Virus record (IMG/VR): IMGVR_UViG_3300038312_000145
Span: 1 to 58,513 of that record
DNA: 58,513 bases
Origin: a virus
Taxonomy: Duplodnaviria > Caudoviricetes
Reading direction: 5' to 3' (one strand)
Every line of letters starts with the position of its first letter. Within the stretch, counting starts at the first letter, position 1. Shown in pieces: positions 3,766 through 43,501 of this stretch. The notes under the pieces were generated by a model. That model was not told the origin of the DNA, did not search any database, and saw only the letters and a list, made by a program, of their open reading frames with translations. Position numbers and translations under genes: made by a program.

Positions 3766-3809
3766 AAGGTGCTTTTTATTATGCAAAAAATTATTAGTAA
3801 GGAGTAATT

Positions 3810-4061: not shown

Positions 4062-4070
4062 GGAGGGAAT

Positions 4071-4389: not shown

Positions 4390-4393
4390 GGGG

Positions 4394-4648: not shown

Positions 4649-4650
4649 TA

Positions 4651-4896
4651 ATGTCTAAATACTTATTAAATCTATTACCATACATAAAACTATACTTAAT
4701 AAGTGCTACAGCTATTAGTATTGTATTTATAATCTTAACAATTATATTTTTACATAATCGAAATAAAGCATATAAAGAACATAGAGAACAAATGAAGAAA
4801 CGTAAAGAAAAATTTATGAAAGAATGGAACAAACACTTCACTCAATTTGATATACCTGAGAGTGAAGAAATTCCAATGCCTAAAAAGACAGTTTGA
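4651..4896 (+). CDS. Small membrane protein
   Basis: One hydrophobic helix followed by a basic tail. Confidence 0.55.
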   Translation: MSKYLLNLLPYIKLYLISATAISIVFIILTIIFLHNRNKAYKEHREQMKKRKEKFMKEWNKHFTQFDIPESEEIPMPKKTV

Positions 4897-4928
4897 AAAA
4901 ATAATGTGATAAATTAGGAGTGATTAAG

Positions 4929-5081
4929 ATGCTAGCAGAAATAACAGGGCCACCAGCGGAGGTACTCGGGAATAACGGAGACACTATGCCAACAGAAAAT
5001 ATTCCAGAGGGCTCGGGATATATAAATGTGGACAATGGGAATACTTATGTTTGGCATATAGATAAATGGTATCCAGTATAA
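4929..5081 (+). CDS. Hypothetical 50-aa protein (not in ORF track)
   Basis: AGGAGTG RBS; MLAEITGPPAEVLG...WHIDKWYPV. Confidence 0.55.
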   Translation: MLAEITGPPAEVLGNNGDTMPTENIPEGSGYINVDNGNTYVWHIDKWYPV

Positions 5082-5093
5082 GGGGGTGATAAT

Positions 5094-5726
5094 TTGGATG
5101 TAACAATATGTGAAGTATGCAATGGAACAATATCTTTAGATAAAAGTATACCAATAAACTCTCTTAATAAGTCTTTAATAGAAGTGATTCGGAAAGAGCA
5201 CCCTAACATATTAGAAGAAGGAAGTATATGTTTAGAGTGCTTAAATCATTATAGAACGTGTCATTTAGCAGATGTATTAAAAGTAGAAAAAGGCAATCTT
5301 ACAGATATGGAAAAGAATATTGCAAAGAGTGTCCAGAAGAGAGAAATACTTTCTAAAAACATCAATGATGAGTTTGAAGAAAATTTATCATTTGGAGATA
5401 GGCTTGCAGATAAAGTCGCAGACATAGGCGGTAGTTGGGGATTTATTGGATTATTCGCACTTGTAATATTAGCATGGCTATTTATAAATACAGCACATTA
5501 CTTTTATCATTTTGACCCTGCGCCTTATGGAAAGCTAAATTTGATTTTATCATGTTTGGCGGCATTTCAATCTCCTATAATTATGATGTCACAAAATAGA
5601 AAGGCATCAAAAGACAGAATGTTAGCAGAACATCAATATAAACTTAATTTAAAGATGGAACTTGAAATGCGCAGGATGCATGAGAAACTAGATTTTGTAA
5701 TGAATAAGCTAAATAAAGTAGCTTAG
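5094..5726 (+). CDS. DUF1003-family membrane protein
   Basis: GDRLADKVA.IGGSWGFI, FDPAPY..LNL.LSCLAAFQSPIIMMSQNR motifs. Confidence 0.85.
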   Translation: MDVTICEVCNGTISLDKSIPINSLNKSLIEVIRKEHPNILEEGSICLECLNHYRTCHLADVLKVEKGNLTDMEKNIAKSVQKREILSKNINDEFEENLSFGDRLADKVADIGGSWGFIGLFALVILAWLFINTAHYFYHFDPAPYGKLNLILSCLAAFQSPIIMMSQNRKASKDRMLAEHQYKLNLKMELEMRRMHEKLDFVMNKLNKVA

Positions 5727-5741
5727 GAGGATGGAAGATAT

Positions 5742-6320
5742 ATGGAAAAACTAAAATTAGGCCGTCTATGTATAAATGATAATTGCATAGATAGTGACTG
5801 CAATTTAGAATTCAGACTAGAAAAAGGGAAAGAGTCTATAAAAACAGAAATTGAAATAGGATGTTATTGGCGTTCTTTATTTACTAATGAAGTGCTAAAA
5901 GACAAAGAGAAATGTAAAGAAATTTGCAAAGGAATATTAAAAACTATAATTCATTTTTGCCCTTTTGAAATTATGACTTATAAAAATGTTATTAAAGAAA
6001 ATACTATTGAATTTGTATTAGCTTGCTATGGTTTTAAATTAGTTGCTATTTTACATACAGATTATTTAGATTTTCGTAATAAACAAATGGCACATGATTT
6101 AATTTTAGATTTTTTGGAGGATAAAGAAGAAGTGGAAAGTAAAGAGGATATTGAAGATAAAAGGAAATTTCATGTTACACTAAGAAATGGTAAGGAATTA
6201 TTGACTATATCTAATATGAATTTGCATGAAATATATAAGATGATAGGTACTAAGGACTTAGTAGAAATAGGTGACATTATAATAAATAGTGGAGATATAT
6301 TATATATAAAACAAATATAG
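5742..6320 (+). CDS. Hypothetical protein
   Basis: ORF with GGAGG RBS. Confidence 0.55.
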
Positions 6321-14882: not shown

Positions 14883-16370
14883 ATGACGACTTTACCTTTA
14901 AGCGATATAGTTGACGTTTCTGTAAATGTTGGTCCGGTTGCACAAGTTAGGACTAACTTTAACTTAGGACTTATAGTTGGACAATCAACTATTATTTCAG
15001 CAAGTGACAGGGTTAAAACTTATTCAAAGTTAGGGGATATGACAGCAGACGGATGGACAGGGAATGAACCAGAATATTTAGCAGCACAATTATATTTTTC
15101 TCAAACTCCTCAACCTGGACATATAGCAGTAGGAAGATGGGTTAATACTGGAGAAACACCAGAAACAGCAGTTGCAGCGGTTACAGCATGTAGAAATACT
15201 AATGCCGAATGGTATGCTTGTACGGTTTGCGGAGCTGCTAAGGCAGATATACAGGCAGTTAGTGCTTATATAGAAGCAGCAAGCCCAGCGTGTGTTTATT
15301 TTTATACAACACATGATGATGATGTAGCAAGTGGCACAAGTGGAAATATTATGGATTTATTGTCTAAAAATAAAGTCCACAGAACTTTAGGACAATTTTC
15401 TACTGACAGCACAAAAACAGTAGGATATGAAGTAGGCGGGGCAAGTGCGGCAACAGATATTCATAGTGGAACAGCGAATAAATTTAAAATAGCTGTAGAT
15501 GGAGACACAACTTCACATGAAATAGTTTTGACTTTAGCTAATTGTACAAGTGGAGATACTACAGCAGCAGAAATGCAAAAACAAATTCAAGCAATTTCAG
15601 ACACAAGATATTCCAGTGTAACTGTAATTTATTCAGTAGATCATTATGTTATTACTAGTGCTAATGCTGGAGAAGGCAGTCAAATAAGAATAACAGCAGG
15701 AGATACCAACGATATATCAGCAGGATTAAAAATAGGTGCTGCAAATGGTGCAACAGATATTGACGGTACATCAACATATAAAGAAGCAGCAGCAGCAATA
15801 ATGGGATATGCAATGGGAGCTAATACACAAACAGCTAATAGTGCTTATACATTAGATGCAAAAGCAGAAGTTGGAGTTGCAGCTGCAGATATAACCAGTA
15901 CAGAATTAACTAAAATAAAATTTTACAACGGAAATGTATATGTAAATCGTGGCAGTGTCTATAACTTGTTTGAGAATGGTACTATGCATGATGGCACATT
16001 TTTTGACGAAGTATTAAATTTAGATATGCTTTCAAATGATTTACAAGTAGCTGTCATAAATGCGTTTACAACAGAAAGTAAAATACCACAAACCGATGCT
16101 GGAATGGAAATGCTACAAAATGTTTTAACAGCACCACTAGAAAATGCAGTAAAAATAGGATTTATAGCACCCGGTGTATGGAACAGCCAATCGGTATTAA
16201 GTGTTAAAACGGGTGATGTTCTAACCACAGGCTATAAGATATTATTTGATTCTATAACAGACCAAACACAGGCAGATAGAGAAGCTAGAAAAGCACCTCC
16301 AGTTTATGTGCTTGCTAAATTATCTGGTGCTATTCAATATCTTAAAATTGGTTTGTATATAAATAGATAG
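14883..16370 (+). CDS. Tail sheath protein (DUF3383 type)
   Basis: DIVDVSV, EYLAAQLYFSQ.P.P, KIPQTDAG, DREARKAP motifs. Confidence 0.85.
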   Translation: MTTLPLSDIVDVSVNVGPVAQVRTNFNLGLIVGQSTIISASDRVKTYSKLGDMTADGWTGNEPEYLAAQLYFSQTPQPGHIAVGRWVNTGETPETAVAAVTACRNTNAEWYACTVCGAAKADIQAVSAYIEAASPACVYFYTTHDDDVASGTSGNIMDLLSKNKVHRTLGQFSTDSTKTVGYEVGGASAATDIHSGTANKFKIAVDGDTTSHEIVLTLANCTSGDTTAAEMQKQIQAISDTRYSSVTVIYSVDHYVITSANAGEGSQIRITAGDTNDISAGLKIGAANGATDIDGTSTYKEAAAAIMGYAMGANTQTANSAYTLDAKAEVGVAAADITSTELTKIKFYNGNVYVNRGSVYNLFENGTMHDGTFFDEVLNLDMLSNDLQVAVINAFTTESKIPQTDAGMEMLQNVLTAPLENAVKIGFIAPGVWNSQSVLSVKTGDVLTTGYKILFDSITDQTQADREARKAPPVYVLAKLSGAIQYLKIGLYINR

Positions 16371-23660: not shown

Positions 23661-25115
23661 ATGAAAAAGAAAATTATAGGTTTGATTTTTACTTTATGTT
23701 TTACTTTGCTATTTACATATGGAGTAAAAGCAGATGGATTGCAAGTTACTAGACTAGATGGTAATAGTGTTTCAACTATAGGTACTAGGGCAGTAGATAA
23801 AGGCTGGCAAAAATCCGATTACGCTGTTATAGTAAATGAAAATGATTCGCCAGATATGATAAGTGCTTCTATATTAGCTAGAAAATATAGTGCACCTGTT
23901 ATATTCAGCGATTCTGACATTTTGAATGGATATCAAATGTCTCAAATAACTAAATTAGGAGTTAAAAAAGTATTTTTAGTTGGTGGAACAGCGGTTTTAT
24001 CAGCAAACTTTGAATTTATATTTCAAACATCTGGTATAAGTTGTGAAAGAATTTGTGGAGCAGATAGATATCAAACTTCCATAGCGATAGCAAAGAGAAT
24101 AGGAACTCAAAATGGCGTTACTATTGTTGCAGGAGACGATTATATAGATGCTCTTTCAATGATACCTATAGCCGGGAAACTGCAAATGCCTATAATATTA
24201 TCTCGAAAAGACGTTTTAGATTCTGTACAAAAGAAATTTGTAGCAGAAAATGTTATTCCTAAAAGTTATGTAATAGGAAATGCAGATTTAATAAGCAATA
24301 ATGTAGTTTCTAAATTACCTAATGTACAAAGAATAGCAACTGGATTTGATGTTTATTCCAGAAATTTAAATATTATAAATACTTTTAAAAGTAGTTTAGA
24401 TTTTAGCAATATTTTTTTAGCTATAAATGATAATTCGGTAAGTGGTTTAGGCGGTTCAGTTTTTGCAGCTTTAAACGGAAACCCGATAATTTTAGCAGAT
24501 AATATTAGTGAAAAGCCATATATAGAAAGCTTATTAAGCGAAAATAAAACAACAAATATATATGCACTAGGAGATCAATATACAATAAAAGATGATTTTT
24601 TAAATGATATAGTGGGCGGAACAAATGCTTTAAATATTATAAAATCTAAGGTAAAACTTAGTGAGAACTTAAATTTAAAAATTGGATACGAGAAATATAA
24701 ATATGATGGAAGTAGCTATTATGTTGTTTCATTACATGAGAGAAGAAATGGACTAGATTTATGCGGTTTCTATCAATATGATTTTTTAGTAGACACAGAA
24801 ACAGGAGATACTTATAAACTTGACATAAATACTAAAGAAATAACTCCACTTGACGATATGCAAATAGGACTAAATACTAACGATAAACAAAAAGCCCTTG
24901 AAACTGTTGCAGACCATGTTACTGAAAAAGATGATAATACAGTAGTTGAATGTGATGGAATTGAAGATAAAGATAATATGAATTGTTATATTATACACGT
25001 TTATGATAATCTTTATGACCATATTTCTACTATAGATTTTTATTATGCCGAAATAGGCACAGGCAAAATTTATATACATGATGCCGATACAGATACAATT
25101 AAACCAATAAATTAA
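23661..25115 (+). CDS. Secreted cell-wall-binding repeat 2 (CWB2) protein
   Basis: Signal peptide (..GVKA); RI.GADRYQTS.AIA, D.LS......PIIL, KV.LVGG repeats; variable C-terminus. Confidence 0.85.
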   Translation: MKKKIIGLIFTLCFTLLFTYGVKADGLQVTRLDGNSVSTIGTRAVDKGWQKSDYAVIVNENDSPDMISASILARKYSAPVIFSDSDILNGYQMSQITKLGVKKVFLVGGTAVLSANFEFIFQTSGISCERICGADRYQTSIAIAKRIGTQNGVTIVAGDDYIDALSMIPIAGKLQMPIILSRKDVLDSVQKKFVAENVIPKSYVIGNADLISNNVVSKLPNVQRIATGFDVYSRNLNIINTFKSSLDFSNIFLAINDNSVSGLGGSVFAALNGNPIILADNISEKPYIESLLSENKTTNIYALGDQYTIKDDFLNDIVGGTNALNIIKSKVKLSENLNLKIGYEKYKYDGSSYYVVSLHERRNGLDLCGFYQYDFLVDTETGDTYKLDINTKEITPLDDMQIGLNTNDKQKALETVADHVTEKDDNTVVECDGIEDKDNMNCYIIHVYDNLYDHISTIDFYYAEIGTGKIYIHDADTDTIKPIN

Positions 25116-25190
25116 CGTTAAGATAGTAATATATGCTTCATTAGAAAGGTTAAAAATATGTAAAAAGAGCCACTTAATTGTAGCTCTTTT

Positions 25191-25778
25191 TTATTTAATA
25201 TTATTTTCTATTTTATAAATTTCATATTTAACAAGTTCTGATATCTTATTTATGATATCGCGAATTTGCTTATCTGTGAAATATTTTAATTCAGGGTCTT
25301 GCGGAATTTCAGTGCTTACATTTAATGGTGAATAATATTGTTCAGTATTTTCTAAATAATTTAATATAGCGTTTAATAAATAATTAGGCTTTTCTTCTAT
25401 TTTAAAAACAGCGTCACGCCAAGAAATAGCATTATCTTGTAATGAACGAACTGTATTTTTTATGGAATCAATATTATTTTCGTATCGTTGGAAAAGCATT
25501 GGCATGTCACCATTTTCTGTAATCATATTTTCATCTATTAAGTTTTTCATATTTTCAGATATATATTGTTTAATATCAGAACTTAAAAGAGTAGAAGCAG
25601 AAACTTTTAATACATTGCATATGTCAAGTAAAGTAGATACAGGTATATTGACCTTACCACTTTCATATTTTCTTATTAATATTTCAGATTTATAAATTTT
25701 TTCGCCAAGTTCTTTTTGGGTTAGTTTAGCCATGTTCCTATATTTTTTTATATTTTGTGAGAGCACAGAGTATTCCAA
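25191..25778 (-). CDS. XRE-family repressor (second switch)
   Basis: NIKKYR....LTQKELG..I......I.KYESG HTH. Confidence 0.85.
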   Translation of the reverse strand: MEYSVLSQNIKKYRNMAKLTQKELGEKIYKSEILIRKYESGKVNIPVSTLLDICNVLKVSASTLLSSDIKQYISENMKNLIDENMITENGDMPMLFQRYENNIDSIKNTVRSLQDNAISWRDAVFKIEEKPNYLLNAILNYLENTEQYYSPLNVSTEIPQDPELKYFTDKQIRDIINKISELVKYEIYKIENNIK

Positions 25779-25807
25779 TTAAATCACCTCGATAATAATA
25801 TACCACT

Positions 25808-25899
25808 ATAGATAAAAAATATCTATTAGAAATATAAAAATTATATTGACATAGATAAAAATTTATCCTATAATAAACTTGTAAGATAAATTTTTATCT
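25808..25899 (+). promoter_or_regulatory. Consensus promoter with three GATA-N5/6-TATC operators
   Basis: TTGACA (25846)-17-TATAAT (25869); palindromes at 25808..25826, 25854..25867 and 25884..25899. Confidence 0.8.
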
Positions 25900-25914
25900 A
25901 TAGGAGGTGAGAAT

Positions 25915-26115
25915 ATGGAAGTCAAAATAGCGAGAATAAAAAAAGGCTTAACTCAAGAGCAATTAAGAAAACAGGTAAAAATTTCTCCAAATAAAATGAC
26001 ACAAATAGAAAGAGGAAATTATTCAAATGTTACTTTTGACCAGATGAAAAAAATTGCTAAAATTCTTGGAGAGGATGCGAGGAAACTATTTTTCAATGAA
26101 GAAGTGGAAAATTAA
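25915..26115 (+). CDS. Cro-like HTH protein
   Basis: 66-aa XRE HTH divergent from the repressor. Confidence 0.85.
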   Translation: MEVKIARIKKGLTQEQLRKQVKISPNKMTQIERGNYSNVTFDQMKKIAKILGEDARKLFFNEEVEN

Positions 26116-26245
26116 TAACCCATTGCTATAAGTTTGACAGCTTAGCAATGGGTTAACTCAAAATAGTACCCTACATTCATTATTATATACTATTTTGAGT
26201 TATTTTAAAACAAATTTAAAATAATAAAATTAAAGGAGATACAGT

Positions 26246-27088
26246 ATGAATAATGAAATGGCAATTTTACAAAAAACATTTAAAAAAGAAGGACTAGGTC
26301 AAATAAGAATTGCTAGGCTAAATGATAAGTTAATGTTTAATCTATATGACAGTTGCTTTCATTTGGGATATACTAGGCAAGCTAAGAATAAGTTGTATTT
26401 AAGAAAAGATAAAATTACAAATATATGTAAAAGCATTGATATTAAAGGGTTGTCACTTGGTGACAACTTTGAAGAAATTAATTTTAATACTGATTTTGAA
26501 AATACATGGATAAGTGAACAAAACTTTTATGATTTATGTTTAGAAAGCCATGCTAAAAACGCAAGACCTTTTAGAAGATGGGTAACTGGAGAAGTACTTC
26601 CTAGTATAAGAAAGACGGGAAAATATGAAACAGATAACGTAATAAGTTTTGATTATAAGCTTGAAAAGTTAAAATTAGAGCAACAAGGACTTAAACTTGT
26701 AGTAGATTTATTAAAACCTAGCAAGGCATCTACAGTAAAGATATTAAGAAATTTTAATGAATCTCAAGGATTAAGCACAGCATATTTTCCTGTATATGTA
26801 GATGAAAAAGCTGGCACATCTGCTACAAGCCTTCTAAGAAAATTTGACATATCTATGAGCACTATTAAATTCAACAAATTAATGCTTGAACATGGATTTT
26901 TAGAAGAAAACGAAAGAAAATCAACAAAAGGAACTAAGAAGTATTGGACTTTAACTGAAAAAGGATTAAAATATGGCAAAAACTTAGTAAATGATAAAGG
27001 CTCAGAAAAAGAGACACAACCACTCTATTATGAAAACACCTTCATGGAGCTTATAAATTTTTTAGGCTGTTCGGAAGGAGTGATGTGA
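26246..27088 (+). CDS. Bro-N / antirepressor protein
   Basis: ARPFRRWVTGEVLPSIRKTGKY; C-terminal FNK.M...G...W.LTEKG.KYG. Confidence 0.8.
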   Translation: MNNEMAILQKTFKKEGLGQIRIARLNDKLMFNLYDSCFHLGYTRQAKNKLYLRKDKITNICKSIDIKGLSLGDNFEEINFNTDFENTWISEQNFYDLCLESHAKNARPFRRWVTGEVLPSIRKTGKYETDNVISFDYKLEKLKLEQQGLKLVVDLLKPSKASTVKILRNFNESQGLSTAYFPVYVDEKAGTSATSLLRKFDISMSTIKFNKLMLEHGFLEENERKSTKGTKKYWTLTEKGLKYGKNLVNDKGSEKETQPLYYENTFMELINFLGCSEGVM

Positions 27089-29559: not shown

Positions 29560-31944
29560 ATGGCAGTTTTTAATAATATGGTAATAACAACAAAAGGTGA
29601 AGCACTTTACAACAAAGTTCAAGCAGGAAAACCACTTAATTTTACAAAAATGAAAATAGGTTCTGGACAATTAGCCACCGGAGACGACCCAACAACTTTT
29701 ACAGCTTTAAAACAATATGCTTTTGATGTTTCTATAAGTTCCATAACTCCCAATACAGTACTTAAAGTAGCTGTAATTTCAGGTACAATAAATAACAATA
29801 ATATAACAGAAGGAAAGTATATTTGTGAGTTAGGACTATTTGCTAATGACCCAGACGAGGGCGAAATATTATACGGATATGCTACAGCAGGAACAGAAGG
29901 AGATTGGATAGCCCCAAGTAGTAAGGGAGCTTTCGCATGGAATTATCAAATTAATGCCGCAGTAGGAAATGCTCAGGACGTTACGGCAACAGTTTCAAGC
30001 ACAACTTTTGATTATGCGGTTGCATCAACGTCAACAACTTTTGCAATTATATCTGGAAATAATCAAAAAGAAATAAATGATAGCATAGATACTACTATTG
30101 GATTAATTAAAAACACTGTAAACTTTGAAGTTGGAAGTTTTACAGCTACAGCGGATAATACGACAAGTTTCCAAATATCAAGCCCATATAATCCTGATAC
30201 TGACCATGTAGAATTATTCTATAAAGGCAATGATAGGATGGAATTAGGAGACAACTATACTTTAAACGGTACACAAGTTTCATTAGTGGGGTGGTCATTA
30301 CTTACAGGTGAAAAAATTACTTATAACATATGGAAATTTGTAAATCATGTTCCTATTATGGCAGATGGTTCAAACTTACAAAATGGAAGTGTTGCAGAAC
30401 GTTCATTAACACAAGACATACAAGACAAAATAGAGAGTGTCCCAGAATCTACAGGATATGGAGTTATATCTGGACTAGGAGTTACAGTACAATCAACACC
30501 TAATATGAGCGTTTTAGTTAATAGTGGCCGTGCTCATATGCCAGTAAGCAGTAAAAGAGTCAATTTAACATCAAGTACAACTATTCCAATTACAGCTTCA
30601 GACGCATTAAAACCTAGAACTGATATAGTTTATATAAATGCTAGTGGTGTACCAAGTTATTTAGCAAGTGGGTTAGGAACTGCGGCAGTAGCAGGCACTA
30701 GGAACTATACGATAAATACTAATGCAAAGGTGGCAGTAGCAGGAAGTAATACTTATACTATAAGTACAAATTTTGCTTCTGGAGATACGGTGGTTTTTGA
30801 TGGAGTAACCTTTACTGCGGTAGCAAGTGGGGCTACAGGTGCACAGTTTAACGTCGGTGCAGATTATATGATAAGCGCTACAAATTTAGCAAGCACTTTA
30901 AATACTAATTCTACAATTAATGATAATTTTACAGCTACAGCAAATTCAAATATAGTTACAATTGCAGAAAGGACAGCAGGCAATGGCGATACACCAGGAA
31001 CTATGACAACTACTGGCACAGGAGTAATTACTGCTGGCACTGCTACTACAAGTACACCAGCAGATACAGTTACAATAAACGGAGTAACCTTTACTGCGGT
31101 GGCATCTAATGCTACAAGTAATCAATTTGATGTTGGTGGAGATACTACAGCCACAGCAACTAATTTAGTAAGTGCTTTAAATGCTAATAGTACAATTAGT
31201 GGTTTATATACTGCTAATTCATCTACAAATATAATTACTCTTATTGAAAAAGTTGCAGGGGGTGGGAATACTCCAACAGTTGCAACTACTACTGGTACTG
31301 TTTCTATAGTAAGTGGTACTGCTACAAATAGTACAGCACAAATATATCCTACAGCTCCAACTACACCAGATGGAGGAATGTTACTTTATGATATAAAAGT
31401 AGGAGCAGGAGCAACCGCAATTACAAATTTAGATTTAATTGATAAGAGAATATTTAAATTAAATAATAATCAACTTGCTTCGCAAATGGCAGATAATATA
31501 CAACAATTTGCTGATTTAAATGACTTAATAAATAATTTAAGCACAAATGATGTTGAAGCTAGAAGAGAAATATTAGATATAAAATTAAAACTTGATGAAA
31601 ATGATGTAATGTCTTTTTTAAGTAAAACAGGTATAGGATTTTATGATTTATTTAAAAATACGGAAAATATAGATACTACAAATTCTACAGTAAATATAGT
31701 TAATACAGATGCGGTATTTACGGGAGAACAGTTGTTAAAATTCTTAGAGCAACAATTTGATTCATTTAAGACTGTAGAATTAGCAGTTTATGATTCGGAA
31801 AGACAATCCATTAATGTAGATATGGCTGTAAATAATAGTAACACTATAGAGGCTACAGTCTTTTCAGACAGTATAACTGTTGGAGATAAATTTTATCTTA
31901 ATGGAGAAATTTATATAGTAAATAATGTGCAGTTAGAAGGCTAA
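29560..31944 (+). CDS. Tail fibre protein 1
   Basis: ITTKG, ELGLFA.DPD.GEILY collar domain; duplicated Thr/Ala-rich module (GVTFTAVAS..T..QF.VG). Confidence 0.85.
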   Translation: MAVFNNMVITTKGEALYNKVQAGKPLNFTKMKIGSGQLATGDDPTTFTALKQYAFDVSISSITPNTVLKVAVISGTINNNNITEGKYICELGLFANDPDEGEILYGYATAGTEGDWIAPSSKGAFAWNYQINAAVGNAQDVTATVSSTTFDYAVASTSTTFAIISGNNQKEINDSIDTTIGLIKNTVNFEVGSFTATADNTTSFQISSPYNPDTDHVELFYKGNDRMELGDNYTLNGTQVSLVGWSLLTGEKITYNIWKFVNHVPIMADGSNLQNGSVAERSLTQDIQDKIESVPESTGYGVISGLGVTVQSTPNMSVLVNSGRAHMPVSSKRVNLTSSTTIPITASDALKPRTDIVYINASGVPSYLASGLGTAAVAGTRNYTINTNAKVAVAGSNTYTISTNFASGDTVVFDGVTFTAVASGATGAQFNVGADYMISATNLASTLNTNSTINDNFTATANSNIVTIAERTAGNGDTPGTMTTTGTGVITAGTATTSTPADTVTINGVTFTAVASNATSNQFDVGGDTTATATNLVSALNANSTISGLYTANSSTNIITLIEKVAGGGNTPTVATTTGTVSIVSGTATNSTAQIYPTAPTTPDGGMLLYDIKVGAGATAITNLDLIDKRIFKLNNNQLASQMADNIQQFADLNDLINNLSTNDVEARREILDIKLKLDENDVMSFLSKTGIGFYDLFKNTENIDTTNSTVNIVNTDAVFTGEQLLKFLEQQFDSFKTVELAVYDSERQSINVDMAVNNSNTIEATVFSDSITVGDKFYLNGEIYIVNNVQLEG

Positions 31945-31947
31945 CAA

Positions 31948-32310
31948 ATGAATAGAAGGAAACAAGACAATGAACTTACTGCCTATAAAAAAGCAAAAGA
32001 ATTAATAAATTACACTTTTAGTATTACTGAAGGCAAGAAATTCCCTAAAAAGGTTAGATTTGTACTTGTTAATAGGATACAAAATTTAGTTTTAGATATT
32101 TATACAGATTTATTAAAAGTAAATGAATTATTACTTAAAGAACGTAAATCTATATTTATTAATATTTTAAGCAATATAAAAGTACTTTTGTTTTTAATAG
32201 AGATGTGTTTAAAAGAAAAATATATTAATTTTCACCAATGCGAGATATGGAGTAAGCATTGTTTAAACGTTAAATATCTTACTGCCGCATGGATGAAAAG
32301 TTGTAAATAA
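31948..32310 (+). CDS. avd: DGR accessory variability determinant (four-helix bundle)
   Basis: 120 aa, basic; L.AYKKA..L.......FPKK.RF.L..RI motif; lies directly before the TR. Confidence 0.85.
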   Translation: MNRRKQDNELTAYKKAKELINYTFSITEGKKFPKKVRFVLVNRIQNLVLDIYTDLLKVNELLLKERKSIFINILSNIKVLLFLIEMCLKEKYINFHQCEIWSKHCLNVKYLTAAWMKSCK

Positions 32311-32331
32311 TTTATAGGGTATGGGTTGCAA

Positions 32332-32429
32332 TCCGAACTCCTCCAACTCGAGCAATGTCCGCAATGTGAACACTGACGGTTCTCTGGACAACGACAATGC
32401 CAACAATGGTTACTTGGGAGTTCGCCCCG
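32332..32429 (+). ncRNA. DGR template repeat (TR)
   Basis: 98-bp non-coding repeat of 34310..34407 with 9 AAC/AAT codons; all 11 mismatches are at TR adenines. Confidence 0.95.
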
Positions 32430-32579
32430 ATTAGATGGATTTCTCCGACTTAGTAAACTTATGTTGAACACAGTAGACCATCATCCAAGGAACCCATATC
32501 CTTCCCAAAAAGGTAAATACATGATTATTGATGCAAAAGTTTCTAAGATACTGGAGCTATATACGATAAGGAGATTTTA

Positions 32580-33611
32580 ATGACATTTGATGAAGCCTTT
32601 ACATTTGAACATTTATACAAATCTTACTTAATTGCCAGAAAAGGTAAAAGAAATAAAAATTCTACGGCAAAATATGAAGTAAATGCCATTGAATTCACAA
32701 ATTACCTACTCTACCAATTTAAAAATAATAAATATAAAATTGGCAAATATAAAGAATTTTATGTGTATGAACCTAAAAAAAGATTAATAATGAGTTTACC
32801 ATTTAAAGACAGAGCTGTGCAACACTGTCTGTGTGATTATTATTTAGAACCATTGTTAGAGAAATCAATGATATATGATAATTATGCCAACAGAAAAAAT
32901 AAAGGAACTCATAAAGCACTAAATAGACTAGAAAATTATTTTCATAAATTTTACAGAAAACATAAGAGTGACGGATATGTGCTAAAATGTGACATTTCTA
33001 AATATTTTTATTCTGTCAACCATGACGTTCTTAAAAATATGATTAGCAGGTATATCAAAGATAGAAAAATATTAAATTTCACTTTCCAAATAATTGATAG
33101 CACAGAAAATCCAGGATTACCAATTGGTAATCAAACTTCGCAGTGGTTTGCAATATTTTACATGAGCTGTTTAGACCATTTTATAAAAGAAAAATTGCAC
33201 ATAAAATATTACGAAAGATATATGGATGATTTTTTACTTATTCATAATGACAAAGAATATTTAAAATACTGTAAATCAGAAATATCAAATTATGTTGAAA
33301 ATGAGTTAAAACTAAAGCTTAACAATAAAACACAAATATTTCCTTTAAAAAACGGAGTAGATTTTTTAGGATTTCATACTTATTTAACTGAAACTGGCAA
33401 GGTTATAAGAAAAGTAAGAAGAAATAGCAAAAAAGGGATGAACAATAAACTTAAGAAATTTAAAAAACTATGTATAAAAAGAAAAATATCCAAAGAACAG
33501 ATAGATAAATCTTATAATAGCTGGATTGGACACGTAAGTCATGGTAACAGCTATCATTTAATAAAAAATATGGATAAGAAATATAAAGAAATTTTTAAGG
33601 ATGGTGATTAA
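32580..33611 (+). CDS. DGR reverse transcriptase
   Basis: PFKDRAVQH, KCDISKYF, GLPIGNQTSQ (DGR-type), RYMDDF, GVDFLG; 343 aa with no maturase or endonuclease domain. Confidence 0.95.
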   Translation: MTFDEAFTFEHLYKSYLIARKGKRNKNSTAKYEVNAIEFTNYLLYQFKNNKYKIGKYKEFYVYEPKKRLIMSLPFKDRAVQHCLCDYYLEPLLEKSMIYDNYANRKNKGTHKALNRLENYFHKFYRKHKSDGYVLKCDISKYFYSVNHDVLKNMISRYIKDRKILNFTFQIIDSTENPGLPIGNQTSQWFAIFYMSCLDHFIKEKLHIKYYERYMDDFLLIHNDKEYLKYCKSEISNYVENELKLKLNNKTQIFPLKNGVDFLGFHTYLTETGKVIRKVRRNSKKGMNNKLKKFKKLCIKRKISKEQIDKSYNSWIGHVSHGNSYHLIKNMDKKYKEIFKDGD

Positions 33612-34706
33612 ATGACACAATCTATAGCAAATTTAGCAGTAGGCAGTAAAATAAAATTCGGGCAATATCAAGTAGAGACAGAAAGTAAGCAATCTATAAT
33701 ATGGAAAATAGCAGATAAAAATCATTCTGGGTATCCTACAAACTCTGTTACATTAATAACAGAAAAAATAATAGACTTACGTGGCTTTGACGGAAAAGAA
33801 TCGGGAAATGCAGATAGCGATAGAACTAGTTACGGTAGTAATAGATACAGAACTGCAAATTTAAGACAGTGGTTAAACTCTGGTGGATTGGCAAATACGT
33901 GGTTCACAGCACAAAACTTAACTGATGAAACAGCCAATACCAATAACCATGATGCACCGCCTGTTGATGCAAACATGAATACAACAACAGGCTATAACAC
34001 CAAAGATGGATTTTTAAATTTTTTCAATCAACAAGAACTGACAAGCATTTTAAACACATCATTAACTACCGCAAAAAATACAGTTACAGATGGAGGGTCA
34101 AGCGAATCCATAACAGATAAGACATTTTTACCCTCCGTTACAGAAGTTGGGCTTGGAAATGAAAATAATATAGCTGAAGGTAACAAACTAGCACTATTTT
34201 CAGACGCTACCAGCAGGCTTGCTTATTTAACCCAGCAAGCTTTTTCCAACACTAAAAGTAATAACAAGCCTTCCGCAATAGCCAATGCATGGTATTGGTG
34301 GCTTCGCTCTCCGAACTCCTCCGGCTCGAGCATTGTCCGCTATGTGCGCACTGACGGTTCTCTGGACTTCGGCAATGCCTACTATGGTTACTTGGGAGTT
34401 CGCCCCGCTTGTAATCTGTCATCTGATATCTTGGTATCTGATACTGTGGATTCAGATGGATGTTATACAATAGTTTGGACAAAGAAATATATTATAACAT
34501 TAGATAAACCAATAACTATAACCGTAACAGACGCTTTAATGAAATATAAATTTAATCCAAAAATAAATGGAAATAATGCAAATCTTACAGAAGTAGATAA
34601 TGAAAAGTTAATTTACAAAGTAGACAATGTGGAAGATAACAAAGTTGATTTAGAAATAGACGGTAAAGATGCTAAAATAGATAAAATTGCATATGTAGTA
34701 AGTTAG
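33612..34706 (+). CDS. DGR target protein (DUF6273 / C-type-lectin-fold type) with C-terminal extension
   Basis: LRQWLNS, DK.FLPS.TE, WWLRSP...GVRPA motifs; carries the VR. Confidence 0.9.
   Translation: MTQSIANLAVGSKIKFGQYQVETESKQSIIWKIADKNHSGYPTNSVTLITEKIIDLRGFDGKESGNADSDRTSYGSNRYRTANLRQWLNSGGLANTWFTAQNLTDETANTNNHDAPPVDANMNTTTGYNTKDGFLNFFNQQELTSILNTSLTTAKNTVTDGGSSESITDKTFLPSVTEVGLGNENNIAEGNKLALFSDATSRLAYLTQQAFSNTKSNNKPSAIANAWYWWLRSPNSSGSSIVRYVRTDGSLDFGNAYYGYLGVRPACNLSSDILVSDTVDSDGCYTIVWTKKYIITLDKPITITVTDALMKYKFNPKINGNNANLTEVDNEKLIYKVDNVEDNKVDLEIDGKDAKIDKIAYVVS
34310..34407 (+). repeat. DGR variable repeat (VR)
   Basis: Aligns ungapped to the TR; ends in GC-rich GGGAGTTCGCCCCG (IMH-like). 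Confidence 0.95.
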
Positions 34707-34717
34707 GAGATGATTTC

Positions 34718-34903
34718 ATGGGAAAGTATGTAAATATAAATATAATAAATGAACAACTGGGTAAACAAAATACAGCAAAAGCTATAGCAGATTTAAGCGT
34801 AGCAAATGCAAAAAAAGATGCATTAATACAGCAATTAGCAGGCACTGTATCTAATTTAAATATAAAAATAGCACAATTACAAGGAGGAAGTACAAATGTT
34901 TGA
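34718..34903 (+). CDS. Small coiled-coil tail-fibre chaperone (XkdW-like)
   Basis: Heptad pattern; precedes XkdX. Confidence 0.55.
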   Translation: MGKYVNINIINEQLGKQNTAKAIADLSVANAKKDALIQQLAGTVSNLNIKIAQLQGGSTNV

Positions 34904-35030
34904 TTTTTATAGAGTTTTTTATCAAATGGGATATTTAGAAAAGCAAGATGTACATGATGCAGCACAATGGGGAGTTATAACATTACAGGATTATAAAACC
35001 ATAACTGGTGAAGAATATGCTACACAATAG
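34896..35030 (+). CDS. XkdX-family protein, 44 aa (not in ORF track)
   Basis: FY.MG......V......G.IT...Y..ITGEEY motif; GGAGG RBS. Confidence 0.8.
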   Translation: MFDFYRVFYQMGYLEKQDVHDAAQWGVITLQDYKTITGEEYATQ

Positions 35031-35363
35031 AATATTTTTGCGTATATATTTATACTTATAAATATATATAAGTGTGTATTAATATGTATAAAAATGACAT
35101 ATGAAATTTAAAGATATATAATCATTCCTAAGGGGGTGGCTATATTGGGAGAGAAGGCGGTGCGTATAAATATCACACTTCCACCAGATGTACTGGCAGA
35201 ATTCAAAAAATATGGAGCTAAAAAAGGAATTATGATATCTCCTTTCGTAGCTGCTAGCGTGAAAAATATACTTAAGTTTGGATAAATGGGCGAATTTAAT
35301 AAAGAACCTTAAAGACTTTTTTAAAAAAGTTCTAGATCCTTGAATGAAATTATTAAGTTAGGG

Positions 35364-36626
35364 TTACAATTTTAGACAGGAAATATCAGAATCTTTTATT
35401 ATGCCTTGAGCAATGAGAAAACTTGTAGCTTGTTTTATGGCCTTTTCTTTTTGCTTATTCTGAATTTCCTGAGGCATATCAATTTTATATAAGTCACAAG
35501 GATTGAAATCTTCACCCCTAACAAACATATGGTATATAGCGGTAAGAATCATTCTTGCGATAGCGATAATGGCTCTTTTCTTACCTCTGCGTTTGTATAT
35601 ACGTTCGTATTTAACCTTGTAGTAAGGAGATTTGTTCGACTTCACGGATGCATGGGCAACTTGTACCAATGCAGGTTTGAGGTAAACACCAGCACGTGAT
35701 ATACGAACAGATTTTTTCTTACCGGCAGATTCATTATTGCTTGGCGTTAATCCAGCCCAGCAGCATAAACGCTTAGAGTTTGAAAATTGAGTCATATCAG
35801 TACCAATCTCGGAGATAATAGTGATTGCAGATTGCCTGTTGACTCCGGGAATGGTACATAAAAGTTTAATGTAATTTTCATAAGGTTCGACCATTTTGTT
35901 GAGTTTAGCATCAAGTTCAGAAATAGATTGGGTTATATACTCTAAATGTGAGCGAACCATTATCATACGTTCTTTTTGTTCCTGAGTCATCTGATATCCT
36001 TCTATGGATTCAATTACAGCACTTGCTTTTTTCTTCAAAGATCTTTGAAGAAGAGAAGTACAATACTGTGGATTGAAGGAATCAGAGGAAATTAAGTAGT
36101 CTGTGATGGAAGCGGCTGATTTGCCAAACATGTCAGAAACGACAGCATCAAGGGCTACATTGCAAACAGTAAAAGCATTTTGAAACCTATTCTTTTCGCT
36201 GCTTTTACAGGAAACAAGTTTAGAACGATAGCGAGTATACTCGCGAAGAATACGTATGGGCTTTTCTGGGATGTAACTTCCTGGGACTAATCCAAGGCGA
36301 AAGAGATCTCCAATCCATTTGGAATCTTTGGTATCATCCTTATTTCCTTTTATAGCTTTTACCCATTTGGGATTGGCAATAGTTAGATGGATGGCATCTT
36401 CTAAAAGATTATGAACAGGAACCCAATACTTTCCTGTAGATTCCATACACACATCAAAGCAGTTGTTATCAATAAGCCACTGCTTAAATTGAAGAATTGA
36501 ATTGTTAAAAGTTGAAAATCTCTTTTTTGAATAATGGGGAGTAATCCCCTGTGAAGTAATAATTGTGGCAACGAGAAAAGTCTTATGCACATCGACACCA
36601 CAACAGATAGGATGAACAACTTTCAT
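35364..36626 (-). CDS. IS110 transposase/recombinase
   Basis: GVDVHK, MESTG, KDDTKDS (DEDD RuvC-like), TIPGV, GLTP...ESAGK motifs. Confidence 0.95.
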   Translation of the reverse strand: MKVVHPICCGVDVHKTFLVATIITSQGITPHYSKKRFSTFNNSILQFKQWLIDNNCFDVCMESTGKYWVPVHNLLEDAIHLTIANPKWVKAIKGNKDDTKDSKWIGDLFRLGLVPGSYIPEKPIRILREYTRYRSKLVSCKSSEKNRFQNAFTVCNVALDAVVSDMFGKSAASITDYLISSDSFNPQYCTSLLQRSLKKKASAVIESIEGYQMTQEQKERMIMVRSHLEYITQSISELDAKLNKMVEPYENYIKLLCTIPGVNRQSAITIISEIGTDMTQFSNSKRLCCWAGLTPSNNESAGKKKSVRISRAGVYLKPALVQVAHASVKSNKSPYYKVKYERIYKRRGKKRAIIAIARMILTAIYHMFVRGEDFNPCDLYKIDMPQEIQNKQKEKAIKQATSFLIAQGIIKDSDISCLKL

Positions 36627-36921
36627 AGCACTGCCTCCTTTGACAAATTATAGAGGAGAATACATTGACTGAACCATCACACATTTAACAAAGAGCTAAA
36701 ACAATGATTAGCGTTCGGTTTAATATAACCACTTATTTGTGCTTGAAAGATGATTCTTACACTGGTTAAAATACTGTTTTAAACTGAGAAGTAATCTACG
36801 ACTCACCTCACCGTGCTTTGTAGTATATATTCTCTTCAGTTTAATTATTGACAATTGGTGGAAGCCGCACACCATTTTTTCATTACTATTTGTGTCGCAG
36901 CGGCAGCGGCGAGATGGAGGT
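36627..36921 (-). ncRNA. Candidate IS110 bridge-RNA region
   Basis: About 300-nt structured non-coding end upstream of the recombinase, with short matches to the donor junction and the target. Confidence 0.55.
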
Positions 36922-39837: not shown

Positions 39838-40065
39838 ATGATAAATATGAGTTTAGAAAAAAAGGTATTGATATTCTTTGAAATAGCTATATTATCACTG
39901 CCATTTAACTTTTTAGTTGTTTATCCTATAATAAAACATTTTTCTTCAATTTATAATTTCTTAAATATATGTGGATTCACTATCTTGGCAGAATTAAGTA
40001 TTTATTTTATAGCATTATTTCTATCAGAATTAAAAACAGTAAAATGTAAAGACGGAGGAAAATAA
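39838..40065 (+). CDS. Small 2-TM membrane protein
   Basis: Two hydrophobic segments. Confidence 0.5.
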   Translation: MINMSLEKKVLIFFEIAILSLPFNFLVVYPIIKHFSSIYNFLNICGFTILAELSIYFIALFLSELKTVKCKDGGK

Positions 40066-40448
40066 TGGAAAAACATGTACTTAATTGGATAATCGCAGGC
40101 CTAGGAGTATTAGGGACATGGCTATTTGGGGGATGGGACTTGGCACTAAAAATTTTAGTAGCATTTATGGTAACGGATTATATTACGGGACTTTTTTATG
40201 CCTTTACAGTAAAAACAATAGATTCAAAAGTTGGATTTAAAGGAATTGCAAAGAAATCAGCAATACTGGCAATTTTAATAGTCGGGACACTCCTAGACAG
40301 ACTTATACAAGACAAAACTTTTTTCTTTAGAACCCTTGTTTGTTATTTTTACATATCAAATGAGGGCATTTCTATTTTAGAAAACTGTGGGAAGATGGGA
40401 TTAAAGGCTCCTAAAAAGTTAATGGACACTTTAGAACAACTAAAATAA
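40065..40448 (+). CDS. Holin (toxin-secretion/phage-lysis family)
   Basis: FGGWD, DYITG, S..GFKGI.KK, NEGISILEN motifs. Confidence 0.9.
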   Translation: MEKHVLNWIIAGLGVLGTWLFGGWDLALKILVAFMVTDYITGLFYAFTVKTIDSKVGFKGIAKKSAILAILIVGTLLDRLIQDKTFFFRTLVCYFYISNEGISILENCGKMGLKAPKKLMDTLEQLK

Positions 40449-40459
40449 GGAGGAATTTT

Positions 40460-41467
40460 ATGTTTAAAAAAATAATGCCGTTTTTTACTATAACACTGGT
40501 CTTCATGGCTTGTGTTTTTTTTATGCCTAAAAATGTACAAGCAAGCACAATTTATAAAGGAATTGATGTATACGAAAATTCAGATATTTCAGATTACCAA
40601 GCATTAAAAGATTCTGGCGTTAGTGTTGTAATTCAAAAAGCAAGTGAGGGAAATAATTATAATGATAAATTATTGAGTTACAGAGCTTCTATGTTACCTC
40701 AATATGGTTTTAAGGTGGGATATTATCATTATGCTACAAACAATGGGCAACCAATAACTCAAGCACAACACTTCTTAAATCAAGTGCAAGGACTTCATTT
40801 GGATACTGTACTTTGGCTTGATATAGAAAATCAACCAAATTGGAGTAAAGATGAAGCTATAGATTTTACTAATAAGTTTATAGGTTATGTTCAAAATAGA
40901 GGTTATAAAATAGGCATATACACTGGAATGTCCTTCTATTATGAATATTTAAGTGGAAATGTTGGCAGTGTTCCTTTATGGATTGCTAAATATTCATCTA
41001 CGCCACCAGCTCAATATCCTGATGTTGTTTCATGGCAAAACTCTGAAACAGGACAAGTACCTGGTGTTAGTGGTTATTGTGATACTGACTACTTTAATGA
41101 TTCTATTTTTACAGGGCAGGTGCCTATACAAGAGCTTACAACGCTTCAAAAACAGATACAAGCACTTCAGTATGACTTAAATTTAGACTATAATGCAAAG
41201 CTTGAGTGTGATGGAATAGCAGGGCAAAATACTCTAAATGCGTTAGAAGGTATAAAACCACTATTAGTAAAAGGATACAGAAGCCATGTTATAGAATGGG
41301 TTCAAGAAAAGTTAGTATCTTATGGATATTTAAAAGCTGATTCTTATACTCCTATGACATACGATGAAGCAACTTTTCAAGCCGTAACCAATATGCAAAA
41401 GAATTGGGGACGTGCTACAGATGGAGTTTTTGGACTAGATACGTGGAGTATTTTTTTGAATAACTAA
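40460..41467 (+). CDS. GH25 endolysin with signal peptide and PG-binding domains
   Basis: KGIDV, KASEG, GYYHY, LDIE motifs; C-terminal DG..G..T repeats. Confidence 0.9.
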   Translation: MFKKIMPFFTITLVFMACVFFMPKNVQASTIYKGIDVYENSDISDYQALKDSGVSVVIQKASEGNNYNDKLLSYRASMLPQYGFKVGYYHYATNNGQPITQAQHFLNQVQGLHLDTVLWLDIENQPNWSKDEAIDFTNKFIGYVQNRGYKIGIYTGMSFYYEYLSGNVGSVPLWIAKYSSTPPAQYPDVVSWQNSETGQVPGVSGYCDTDYFNDSIFTGQVPIQELTTLQKQIQALQYDLNLDYNAKLECDGIAGQNTLNALEGIKPLLVKGYRSHVIEWVQEKLVSYGYLKADSYTPMTYDEATFQAVTNMQKNWGRATDGVFGLDTWSIFLNN

Positions 41468-42421: not shown

Positions 42422-43501
42422 TTATAAAATTTGATTAATTATTTTAGAAGCATTGTCAAGCATATTATTAGTTACATGTGAATATGTTTTTATTGTTTGC
42501 TCTACATCATGCCCTAACAATTGAGCAACAGTTTTAAAATCTACTCCATTACTTATAAGCATAGTGGCATATGTATGTCTTAATTCATGTACAGATATAT
42601 TATAACCACATTCTTTATAAGTGAGAGACAACCTGGTTGCAATACCATCTACATTTTTTATTTTAAAAAGCCTATTATCAAAATTTATAGGATAACAATC
42701 TTTGTATTTTTTTATCTCCTTTTCCACAGTTTCAGGCATAGGGACAGTCCTATTAGAATTTTTGCTTTTTAGGCTGCCAAAGCCATAAAATTTATTTTCT
42801 ATTAGTTTCCACTGCTTTTCTATTTTTATAGTACATTCCTTGAAACTTATATCATCCCAAGTTAAACCAACTATTTCACCAATTCTTAAACCGCACTTTC
42901 CTGCTAGCAGAGATATGATATAGTATCTTTTATTTTCAATTTTACTTAATAAATCTTCTAATTGAATTTTCGTTAGTGCTGTTTTTTCTTCTTTTTCTTC
43001 TTTAGGAATATCTATATTTATAACTGGACTTGATAGAACGATTCTATATTTATCTTTAGCAGTATTAAAAAAGACTTTGATTTTGCTTAAATATAATTTT
43101 ATCGAAGAACTCTTAAGCCCTTCTTTTATCAGTTTATCTATAATATTTTGTATATCAAGTATCTGTATATCAGCCATTTTTACATAATTTAAGCTTGAAA
43201 ATTTATTAAACGCTCTTTCATACGTAGCAACAGTGTTGTAAGTATTATATAACTTTATATGCTCAATAAATATATCTTTAAATTGTTCAAATGTTATATC
43301 ATCATAATCATGATTTAAAGTGACTTGATTTTTGACGTTTTTTTTCAATTCATCTAACATTTTATCAGCCGCAGTCTTAGCAAGGGACTGCTTTTTAAAT
43401 CCTTGCTTACTTTTCTGCTTCCATTTTCCAGATATATCTTTATAACTTATAATTACCTGGATACCTTTGTCTTTCTTCCTATAAGTTATGTTATATTGCA
43501 T
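42422..43501 (-). CDS. int: Tyrosine integrase
   Basis: GLRIGE, HELRHTYAT, LGH, TYSH motifs; N-terminal arm-binding domain. Confidence 0.95.
   Translation of the reverse strand: MQYNITYRKKDKGIQVIISYKDISGKWKQKSKQGFKKQSLAKTAADKMLDELKKNVKNQVTLNHDYDDITFEQFKDIFIEHIKLYNTYNTVATYERAFNKFSSLNYVKMADIQILDIQNIIDKLIKEGLKSSSIKLYLSKIKVFFNTAKDKYRIVLSSPVINIDIPKEEKEEKTALTKIQLEDLLSKIENKRYYIISLLAGKCGLRIGEIVGLTWDDISFKECTIKIEKQWKLIENKFYGFGSLKSKNSNRTVPMPETVEKEIKKYKDCYPINFDNRLFKIKNVDGIATRLSLTYKECGYNISVHELRHTYATMLISNGVDFKTVAQLLGHDVEQTIKTYSHVTNNMLDNASKIINQIL

Follow-up and report, generated by a model that had tools for sequence, protein, structure and literature searches.

In the diversity-generating retroelement (DGR) of Bordetella phage BPP-1, sequence passes from a template repeat (TR) to a variable repeat (VR) in an adenine-specific manner, and a cassette ordered mtd-avd-TR-brt joins a reverse transcriptase (RT) and an Avd protein to Mtd, a target with a C-type-lectin fold. 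Closer to the locus described here are the tentaclins, which Baykov et al. (2023; PMC10743442) report as DGR targets of phages nd12 and nd4 from the gut. That account places them in DGR cassettes, gives a size of 313-649 amino acids, and describes a C-lectin head of the DUF6273 type at the N-terminus, whose beta-hairpin holds the VR, and a TR rich in AAC/AAT codons. DGRs with DUF6273 targets have also been described in the Faecalibacterium prophages FP_Mushu, FP_Brigit, Lelie, Roos, and Pioen (PMC11792537). Here we analyzed a stretch of 58,513 nt (the window), which is the whole of IMG/VR virus record IMGVR_UViG_3300038312_000145 (a phage of ~58.5 kb and ~31% GC). Our analysis makes it highly probable that positions 31948 to 34706 hold an intact DGR in a temperate, contractile-tailed phage of fermentation-type anaerobic communities, rewriting the lectin-like hairpin of a DUF6273 protein encoded by the adjoining gene. 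The cassette is a further tentaclin DGR, belonging to a subtype already published from gut phages, and not a new kind of system.

All features of the cassette lie on the plus strand. The TR (32330..32433, core 32332-32429) and the VR (34308..34411, core 34310-34407, encoding amino acids 233-267 of the target) align without gaps over the 98-nt core with 11 mismatches, and each of the 11 falls on one of the 25 adenines of the TR core, leaving the 73 non-adenine positions without a single difference. Realignment thus returned the coordinates and mismatch counts of a first-pass annotation of this DNA made from the sequence alone. Wider frames gave the same pattern, with 12/12 mismatches at TR adenines over 101 nt and 15/15 over 106 nt (32328-32433). 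If mismatches fell at random over positions, the hypergeometric probability of all being on adenines would be 4.0e-8 for the 98-nt frame and 1.2e-10 for the 106-nt frame. The first-pass annotation had extended the alignment by 4 nt on each side with mismatches at adenines alone, and this count holds, but the two mismatches at the 3' side (32430 A>C and 32433 A>G) are common to all three VR alleles for which DNA was available, and residues A266 and C267 are constant across the 15 protein rows described below. To judge by these sequences, the 3' pair looks like fixed differences at the TR/VR boundary and not like fresh adenine mutagenesis.

The TR and VR form the sole long repeat within 31000-36000, where the next longest measures 31 nt, and a BLAST search of the whole record with the TR (E<=10) matched two places, the TR and VR themselves. 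Because the window is the whole virus record, estimated to be 98% complete, the phage has one TR and one VR. Codon enumeration agreed with the earlier annotation on the 25 adenines, on nine AAY codons (VR codons 234-266), and on the absence of any stop codon that changes of adenines in codons 233-266 could create; the number of accessible peptide variants is ~6.3e14. At the 3' end of the VR, a GC-rich, invariant segment (GGGAGTTCGCCCCG; 34394..34407), where TR and VR are the same bar a single A and which is kept in relatives, may act like an initiation of mutagenic homing (IMH) element. The IMH of BPP-1 is the basis for reading the VR 3' end in this way.

Natural variants gave an independent view of the VR. 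Viral contigs provided two close relatives, one (L005, on the same contig as L006) nearly identical to the window and the other (L004) with an RT 87% identical. L005 matches the window at 99.9% identity over 4181 nt upstream (4 differences), and its TR is identical. Across the following 1686 nt, which hold the target gene, there are 23 differences, of which 18 lie in the 101-nt VR, all 18 at TR adenines (binomial p, 2.5e-18); outside the VR, the target gene differs at 2 sites. L004 has its own TR allele, and its VR follows that allele at non-adenine sites, with 13 of 14 mismatches at adenines and one T>C. The TR is itself polymorphic between strains, with 32387 G>A, 32393 G>A, and 32402 A>T in contigs from runs X5 and X9; L004 shares these changes, so that TR alleles gain or lose mutable adenines.

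Variation at the protein level was concentrated in the same place. The 90%-identity protein cluster of the target has 14 members, which with the window protein make an alignment of 15 rows. In this alignment 24 of the 364 columns vary, 16 of them within amino acids 235-261, and 15 of these 16 correspond to codons with a TR adenine; the rows carry nine VR haplotypes. Run X2 yielded the VR (34284-34410) as two alternative 127-nt contigs, with 0 and 10 differences, whose summed depth is 26.4 compared with ~63-70 in the flanks. The two contigs fit a mixture of VRs within a single sample, and the shortfall in depth across the VR suggests further unassembled VR variants in that sample. Relatives with an identical TR and VRs that differ at TR-adenine sites show that the DGR of the window was active in the recent past. 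The first-pass annotation had come to the same view from the lack of drift at non-adenine positions, and both the L005 VR differences and 15 of the 16 variable VR columns of the cluster follow the restriction to TR adenines that it expected.

L005 has also lost most of its RT. An in-frame 834-nt deletion (in the region L005:4001-4198, corresponding to window 32761-33578), lying between short direct repeats (AAATATAAAGAA...), has removed 278 of the 343 RT codons, including all catalytic motifs, and yet the L005 VR is heavily diversified, at 18 of 26 adenine sites. With its RT deleted and its VR diversified, L005 is a "frozen" DGR. In contigs of the four runs examined, the joint of an L005-type RT deletion was not seen, and three further skips in these runs are bounded by sides of no more than 30-39 nt. 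Together, a TR that is constant relative to a close sibling, nine VR haplotypes, and an RT-deleted sibling with a frozen VR make this lineage a clean and well-controlled natural example of DGR activity.

The order of the cassette is Avd-like gene, TR, a 147-nt spacer between the end of the TR and the start of the RT gene, RT, and target. The RT gene (32580..33611) encodes 343 amino acids with a match to Pfam RVT_1 (E 6.2e-19) and the motifs IGNQTSQ and YMDD, so the intact RT and the spacer of about 150 nt reported by the first-pass annotation were confirmed. The RT stop codon TAA (33609-33611) immediately adjoins the target ATG at 33612. Among all Protein Data Bank (PDB) sequences, the best match of the RT was 8ub7_A ("Reverse transcriptase," 328 amino acids; E 2.6e-42, residues 3-335), compared with E 3.4e-13 for the best group II intron RT and E 4.6e-11 for the best chain titled "Retron-type reverse transcriptase." The RT is therefore ~29 orders of magnitude nearer 8ub7 than any PDB group II RT or titled retron-type chain, an outcome opposite to the grouping with group II intron or retron RTs that the earlier annotation had named as evidence against its reading. 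We take 8ub7_A to be Bordetella phage bRT, since its residue numbering agrees with that in the available text of bioRxiv 10.1101/2023.10.23.563531. IGNQTSQ and YMDD align to IGSLTSQ and YMDD of 8ub7, and the RT keeps the positions aligned to bRT K29, F66, R74, I76, D138, I181, G182, Q187, D215, and D216, residues to which this cryo-electron microscopy study assigns roles in catalysis or in contacts with the template and the incoming nucleotide. By these sequence comparisons, the RT is of the DGR type. The TR/VR pattern, the RT type, and the natural VR variants together support the first-pass proposal of a complete DGR with adenine-specific mutagenic retrohoming.

Upstream of the TR, an open reading frame (ORF) of 120 amino acids (31948..32310) has Avd as its best family in two libraries, matching bAvd in Pfam (PF22296; E 1.7e-9, 38.5 bits against a cut-off of 40) and DivGenRetAVD in NCBIfam (NF033474; E 1e-12, 48.3 bits against a cut-off of 80), in each case over the full model length. 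Its position and size fit an Avd gene, and on balance the evidence favours that identity.

To place the cassette among its relatives, we compared it with 55 related loci, made up of nd12, 2 from viruses, and 52 from metagenomes. An ungapped TR/VR pair was present in 34 of the 55; all 34 have the order TR-RT-target, and in 33 of the 34 an Avd-like gene is kept at the same place upstream. Pooled over these 34 relatives, 362 of 391 TR/VR mismatches are at TR adenines. One further locus (L057) has a gapped pair with 14/14 mismatches at adenines and was excluded from the pooled count. The 20 loci without a TR/VR pair are on contigs of limited length or lack an RT within 3.5 kb. Five DUF6273 relatives (L015, L022, L029, L030, and L031; 43-48% identity) had no RT or Avd detectable by tblastn within 3.5 kb upstream and are either remote DGR targets or non-diversified members of the family. 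A megablast search of 50,697 phage records with the cassette gave no match.

The closest described system is that of nd12. Its cassette has the same order, with avd at 3281-3652, TR at 3689-3790, RT at 3970-4983, the target from 5001, and VR at 5676-5777, and its TR/VR mismatches are 14/14 at adenines. The RTs are 55% identical, the Avd proteins 43%, and the targets 47.5% over residues 1-335. The first-pass annotation had remarked that the order avd-TR-RT-target differs from that of BPP-1, as it does, but the presence of this order in nd12 itself and in the relatives makes it the norm of the published tentaclin DGR subtype and not a new layout. The target resembles the nd12 and nd4 tentaclins in its N-terminal DUF6273 C-lectin head, in the VR on a beta-hairpin, and in a TR rich in AAC and AAT codons. 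Unlike nd4 and nd12, which are described with a second small DUF6273 target (PMC10743442) and each have 2 target-like places in their records, the phage here has one target. This target has 364 amino acids with one small beta domain, compared with 569-579 amino acids and three immunoglobulin-like (Ig) domains reported for the nd12 and nd4 targets. The genomes also differ in size (58.5 kb here and ~36-49 kb for nd12 and nd4) and in habitat, which is fermentation here and human gut there. Runs with the sequence came from fermentation, soil, biofilm, and landfill metagenomes in 11 studies, and the tentaclin DGR subtype thus reaches beyond human-gut phages to fermentation-type anaerobic communities. 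Run X5, with 81% of the sampled words, resembles a data set from a single organism.

The Faecalibacterium prophage DGRs share DUF6273 targets, a VR at the C-terminal end of the DUF6273 domain, and a setting in temperate Clostridia phages, as described in PMC11792537. They are distant, the Lelie match by tblastn covering 43% of the query at 34.6% identity, and their targets are reported to have several Ig repeats or tail-fibre domains. With BPP-1, the cassette shares adenine-specific TR-to-VR transfer, an RT homologous to 8ub7 over its full length, an Avd-like gene, and a target of C-lectin fold. In contrast to BPP-1, the target gene lies 3' of the RT gene and not upstream of avd, and the VR is internal (codons 233-267 of 364) and not at the extreme C-terminus.

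When 32311-32600 was folded as a single sequence, the TR appeared enclosed in a long-range stem. An RNAalifold analysis of 12 relatives with spacers of 145-189 nt predicted a structure with a 14-bp helix, with 9 compensatory pairs, in which an arm upstream of the TR (32315..32329) pairs with an arm in the spacer (32489..32503) to close off the TR. Within it, a 5-bp helix has its 5' strand (32434..32438) immediately 3' of the TR and its 3' strand (32478..32482) followed by a conserved ATC(C/A)AAG linker; this helix is 100% paired in the 12 sequences, with compensatory change in 2 of its 5 pairs. Beyond the duplex come a short stem-loop (CC...GG) of variable length in relatives and a conserved A-rich TAAA(T/C)ACA motif (together 32504..32521). 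A stem-loop then occupies the 3' part of the spacer (32526..32568; helices 32526-32530/32564-32568, 32533-32534/32556-32557, and 32539-32540/32550-32551), with compensatory change in 8 of 9 pairs. On the 12-sequence alignment, 97.3% of cells are paired in the proposed structure, compared with 82.8% in shuffles. Compensatory change occurs in 19 of 28 pairs, an amount of covariation that 0 of 500 shuffles attained, and slid controls reached at most 5 pairs. Of 29 distinct DGR RNAs, 23 had a perfect duplex of at least 12 bp in this position, the group with a 269-nt spacer among them. The covarying helices constitute a testable DGR RNA map for the subfamily.

These elements recall the cPRT Stop of BPP-1, which bioRxiv 10.1101/2023.10.23.563531 describes as a duplex of the TR-upstream segment with the spacer, a short stem-loop, and A-minor adenosines, and for which it gives predicted duplexes in 207 DGRs. 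By this likeness, the segment 32504-32521 may correspond to the stem-loop and A-minor adenosines of BPP-1, and the 5-bp helix is a candidate template:primer duplex comparable to the BPP-1 TR:Sp duplex. The two helices border the region of TR/VR homology (32330-32433) exactly, and adenine mutagenesis extends at least to 32419, as seen in the L005 VR. On the BPP-1 model, we infer that cDNA synthesis begins near 32433 and ends at the duplex. The candidate priming helix is placed just beyond the TR/VR homology and not inside it as in BPP-1. The 3' spacer stem-loop possibly binds Avd or RT.

These observations fit a scheme in which a transcript would run from the end of avd through the TR and the 147-nt spacer, with the 14-bp duplex and the 5-bp helix bracketing a single-stranded template. 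The RT together with the Avd-like protein would copy the TR into cDNA, misincorporating opposite adenines, and the cDNA would replace the VR (34308-34411) of the gene directly 3'. The predicted outcome is that up to 16 codons, nine of them AAY, would be randomized on a surface beta-hairpin, giving ~6e14 peptides with no stop codon. Priming in cis and termination by RNA elements are presumed here by analogy with BPP-1, and a role for Avd, virion display, and ligand binding by the target are likewise presumed.

The target gene (33612..34706) encodes a tentaclin-type protein of 364 amino acids, in which a DUF6273 C-lectin-like domain (residues ~1-272) precedes an all-beta C-terminal domain. It matches Pfam DUF6273 (PF19789; E 2.6e-36, residues 44-270) and, over positions 1-262 of a 556-position profile, phrog_10993 (E 1.6e-78), whose label is "Hoc-like head decoration"; 2338 relatives were found at E<=1e-3 among the candidates scored. 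In one homologue, a protein of 541 amino acids (P0083; named "Clostridium sp. WILCCON 0269" at source), DUF6273 occurs alongside the baseplate domain BppU_N (PF10651), so that a lectin head is joined to a known tail-baseplate module. An AlphaFold2 model built with 41 sequences had a mean predicted local distance difference test score (pLDDT) of 88. When this model was compared with 48,161 PDB representatives by VIA-align, 9qa6_A came first (Z 26.5, root-mean-square deviation 2.5 A, 239 residues aligned, 26% identity), and nearly all rows beneath it were C-type-lectin-like, such as the Lcl C-terminal domain (8q4e; Z 6.4) and a Bacteroides fimbrial protein (4eps; Z 6.2). The DGR targets TvpA (2y3c; Z 5.5, 155 residues) and Mtd (1yu0; Z 4.0, a weak structural match) were among the rows, each low Z being unremarkable and the list homogeneous. 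Foldseek against the PDB returned one significant row, again 9qa6, with formylglycine-generating-enzyme and EgtB rows at E >0.2. Among viral models in BFVD, 28 matched at E<=1e-3, many of them titled DUF6273, and automatic naming has given several viral structure matches tail or receptor-binding titles.

In the model, the VR forms a beta-hairpin (241-245/251-255; pLDDT 92-97), and we judged its surface position from secondary structure. By this model the fold of the target is C-type-lectin-like, and the VR lies on a surface beta-hairpin. The closest solved structure, 9qa6, comes from the Thomasclavelia ramosa IgA peptidase, whose N-terminal DUF6273 domain gave the match; the available text of PMC12402451 presents that protein as a bacterial, secreted, multidomain protease and not as a DGR target, and names no ligand for the domain. 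TvpA of Treponema denticola is a bacterial DGR target that likewise uses a C-type-lectin-like fold as its scaffold; unlike the protein here, it has a C-terminal VR, is bacterial and not from a phage, and belongs to another sequence family, which is formylglycine-generating-enzyme-like. When modelled alone, the last 95 amino acids of the target (residues ~272-364) gave an all-beta structure at pLDDT 73.6, with beta-sandwich or Ig-like accessory domains matching at Z <=3.4, and BLASTP found no similarity between this segment and the last 119 amino acids of the nd12 target (E 2.3). Tentaclins are described as having a consensus motif in a C-terminal "anchoring" Ig domain (PMC10743442). The target is a minimal tentaclin, a lectin head on one small beta domain, and its 364 amino acids make it convenient for structural and binding work.

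The target is most likely a virion-displayed ligand-binding protein, and the question of where it is displayed and what it binds divides the remaining readings. The first-pass annotation had called it a tail-associated lectin-fold protein; the fold is borne out by the model and by VIA-align, and what places it at the tail is gene order. We give a little under an even chance to the reading that it is a receptor-binding protein of the tail fibre or baseplate and that the DGR switches host tropism as it does through Mtd in BPP-1. Its gene lies between a tail-fibre gene (29560-31944) and an XkdX-family gene (34896-35030), upstream of genes for a DUF4376 protein, holin, and endolysin, on the same strand as its neighbours, and we found no terminator-like site on that strand. 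The union of BppU_N with DUF6273 in P0083, a Faecalibacterium phage target that combines DUF6273 with an A511 gp105-like tail-fibre domain (PMC11792537), and the automatic names of the viral structure matches all point the same way. Against these stand the PHROGs family label of head decoration, the 794-amino-acid tail fibre that the phage already has, and the available texts on tentaclins (PMC10743442 among them), which leave undecided where on the virion tentaclins sit and whether they bind bacterial receptors or other cells and carbohydrates; for the target itself, the direct evidence consists of gene order.

Several of the same observations can be turned toward an accessory adhesin, either a Hoc-like decoration on the capsid or the tail or a protein that the prophage expresses, that would bind ligands other than the host, such as matrix polysaccharides or other cells. 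We consider this possible, though on balance unlikely. The modelled layout of a lectin head on a short beta domain would suit it, as does the "Hoc-like" label, and PMC10743442 likens tentaclins to T4 Hoc and to adhesins. A 2026 preprint reports that a tentaclin is transcribed and translated from Faecalibacterium prophages and occurs in the secretome without phage particles, and DUF6273 also heads the secreted bacterial IgA peptidase. However, the target gene lies in the tail-fibre module and not with the head genes, and the Hoc label probably derives from Ig repeats that are missing in the 364-amino-acid target, whose match ends less than halfway along the profile. The fermentation, soil, landfill, and biofilm habitats make mucus or immune ligands unlikely for this member.

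More speculatively, and with rather less conviction, we suggest that tentaclin DGRs are not a gut or mucosal speciality, that the head may be a general, reprogrammable glycan adhesin borne by Clostridia phages or shed by their lysogens and not the primary host-receptor binder, and that the RNA may use a variant of the BPP-1 cis-priming geometry, with the template held between two covarying helices and primed at a conserved adenosine (32483) that lies a little beyond the TR/VR homology. Within this glycan-adhesin reading, the fermentation, soil, and landfill habitat implies that the lectin head is not aimed at mucus or immune molecules.

Returning to our reading of the cassette as an intact DGR that rewrites the target hairpin, several points weigh against it or limit its parts. 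The VR haplotype of the window occurs in 5 of the 15 rows, which differ at <=4 non-VR residues; this recurrence on differing backgrounds implies that diversification is episodic or that the haplotype is selected. Residues D247, Y252, D260, and S261 of other cluster members are unreachable from the TR of the window by adenine changes alone. Some TR alleles do have additional adenines (32387 G>A and 32393 G>A, in X5, X9, and L004). The run data are assembled contigs and not reads, cover four runs, and in the case of X2 derive from the study to which the probable source sample belongs. The first-pass annotation had listed Avd as intact: the ORF is present and Avd is its best family, but the assignment falls under the curated cut-offs of both Pfam and NCBIfam, and neither the single sequence nor a 12-orthologue profile found a solved Avd in the PDB (one row, an unrelated designed protein, E 0.72). 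We therefore label this gene Avd-like. As for the RNA, the whole TR-spacer segment is no stabler than shuffles (z 0.28), so that the weight lies on the specific covarying helices, and covariation was scored on the same alignment that yielded the structure. Finally, BPP-1 reportedly has a hairpin or cruciform just downstream of its VR, described by Guo et al. in 2011. Here, a candidate hairpin 3' of the VR (34420-34458) is weak (z -1.48), and no conserved hairpin or cruciform was found after the VR, 11 relatives sharing a 4-bp stem alone with no compensatory change.

The sharing of the window haplotype with four other rows, together with the loss of 278 RT codons in L005, which shows that loss of function does happen in this lineage, could also indicate that the cassette is a recently frozen relic, intact-looking and no longer diversifying. 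We regard this as improbable: all ORFs are intact, the RT catalytic residues are kept, the non-adenine positions of TR and VR are free of mismatches, and run X2 holds two VR versions. A group II intron- or retron-type RT beside a chance or recombinational repeat deserves almost no credence. In its favour, the NCBIfam matches of the RT are to group II, Drt3a, and retron models alone, all of them far under cut-offs, with no DGR RT model among them. Against it, no Rfam family (group II intron and retron RNA families included) reached its gathering threshold anywhere in the window, and the TR/VR mismatches, the PDB ranking of the RT, the L005 differences, and the 34 pooled relatives effectively refute it.

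Scans with PHROG and Pfam profiles provided the genomic setting of the DGR. A tail sheath gene (14883-16370) is followed by genes for a tape-measure-like protein and for baseplate hub and wedge, and the 794-amino-acid tail fibre matches phrog_7037, with the N-terminal 184 amino acids alone matching tail-fibre PHROGs. The tail-fibre gene contains an internal direct repeat of ~158 nt (~71% identity; 30802-30959 and 31081-31238). Downstream of the cassette, a 61-amino-acid ORF precedes the XkdX-family gene, and the gene for the DUF4376 protein lies between an IS110-family insertion and the holin gene (40065-40448), which is followed by a GH25 endolysin gene (40460-41467) and an integrase gene on the minus strand (42422-43501). 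This gene set indicates a temperate phage with a contractile tail, in which the cassette occupies the tail-fibre/late region.

Attempts to identify a host gave little information. A search of genome contigs with the target found relatives at <=54% identity alone (Oscillospiraceae, Anaerococcus, and Clostridiaceae) and no lysogen of this phage, and the IS110 transposase has relatives at <=87% identity across many Bacillota genera, which is uninformative. The IS110-family insertion (~35256-36921; transposase 35364-36626 on the minus strand, PF01548 and PF02371) is absent from the sibling L005, where its flanks are contiguous, and has altered the 3' end of a 49-amino-acid ribbon-helix-helix (RHH)/HicB-like ORF (35136-35285). 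Inside the baseplate/tail module, an anti-repressor (Ant)-like gene (26246-27088) stands next to a low-GC segment (24001-26000; GC 0.269) with a minus-strand ORF (25191-25778), and the region 24001-27088 may be a moron insertion.

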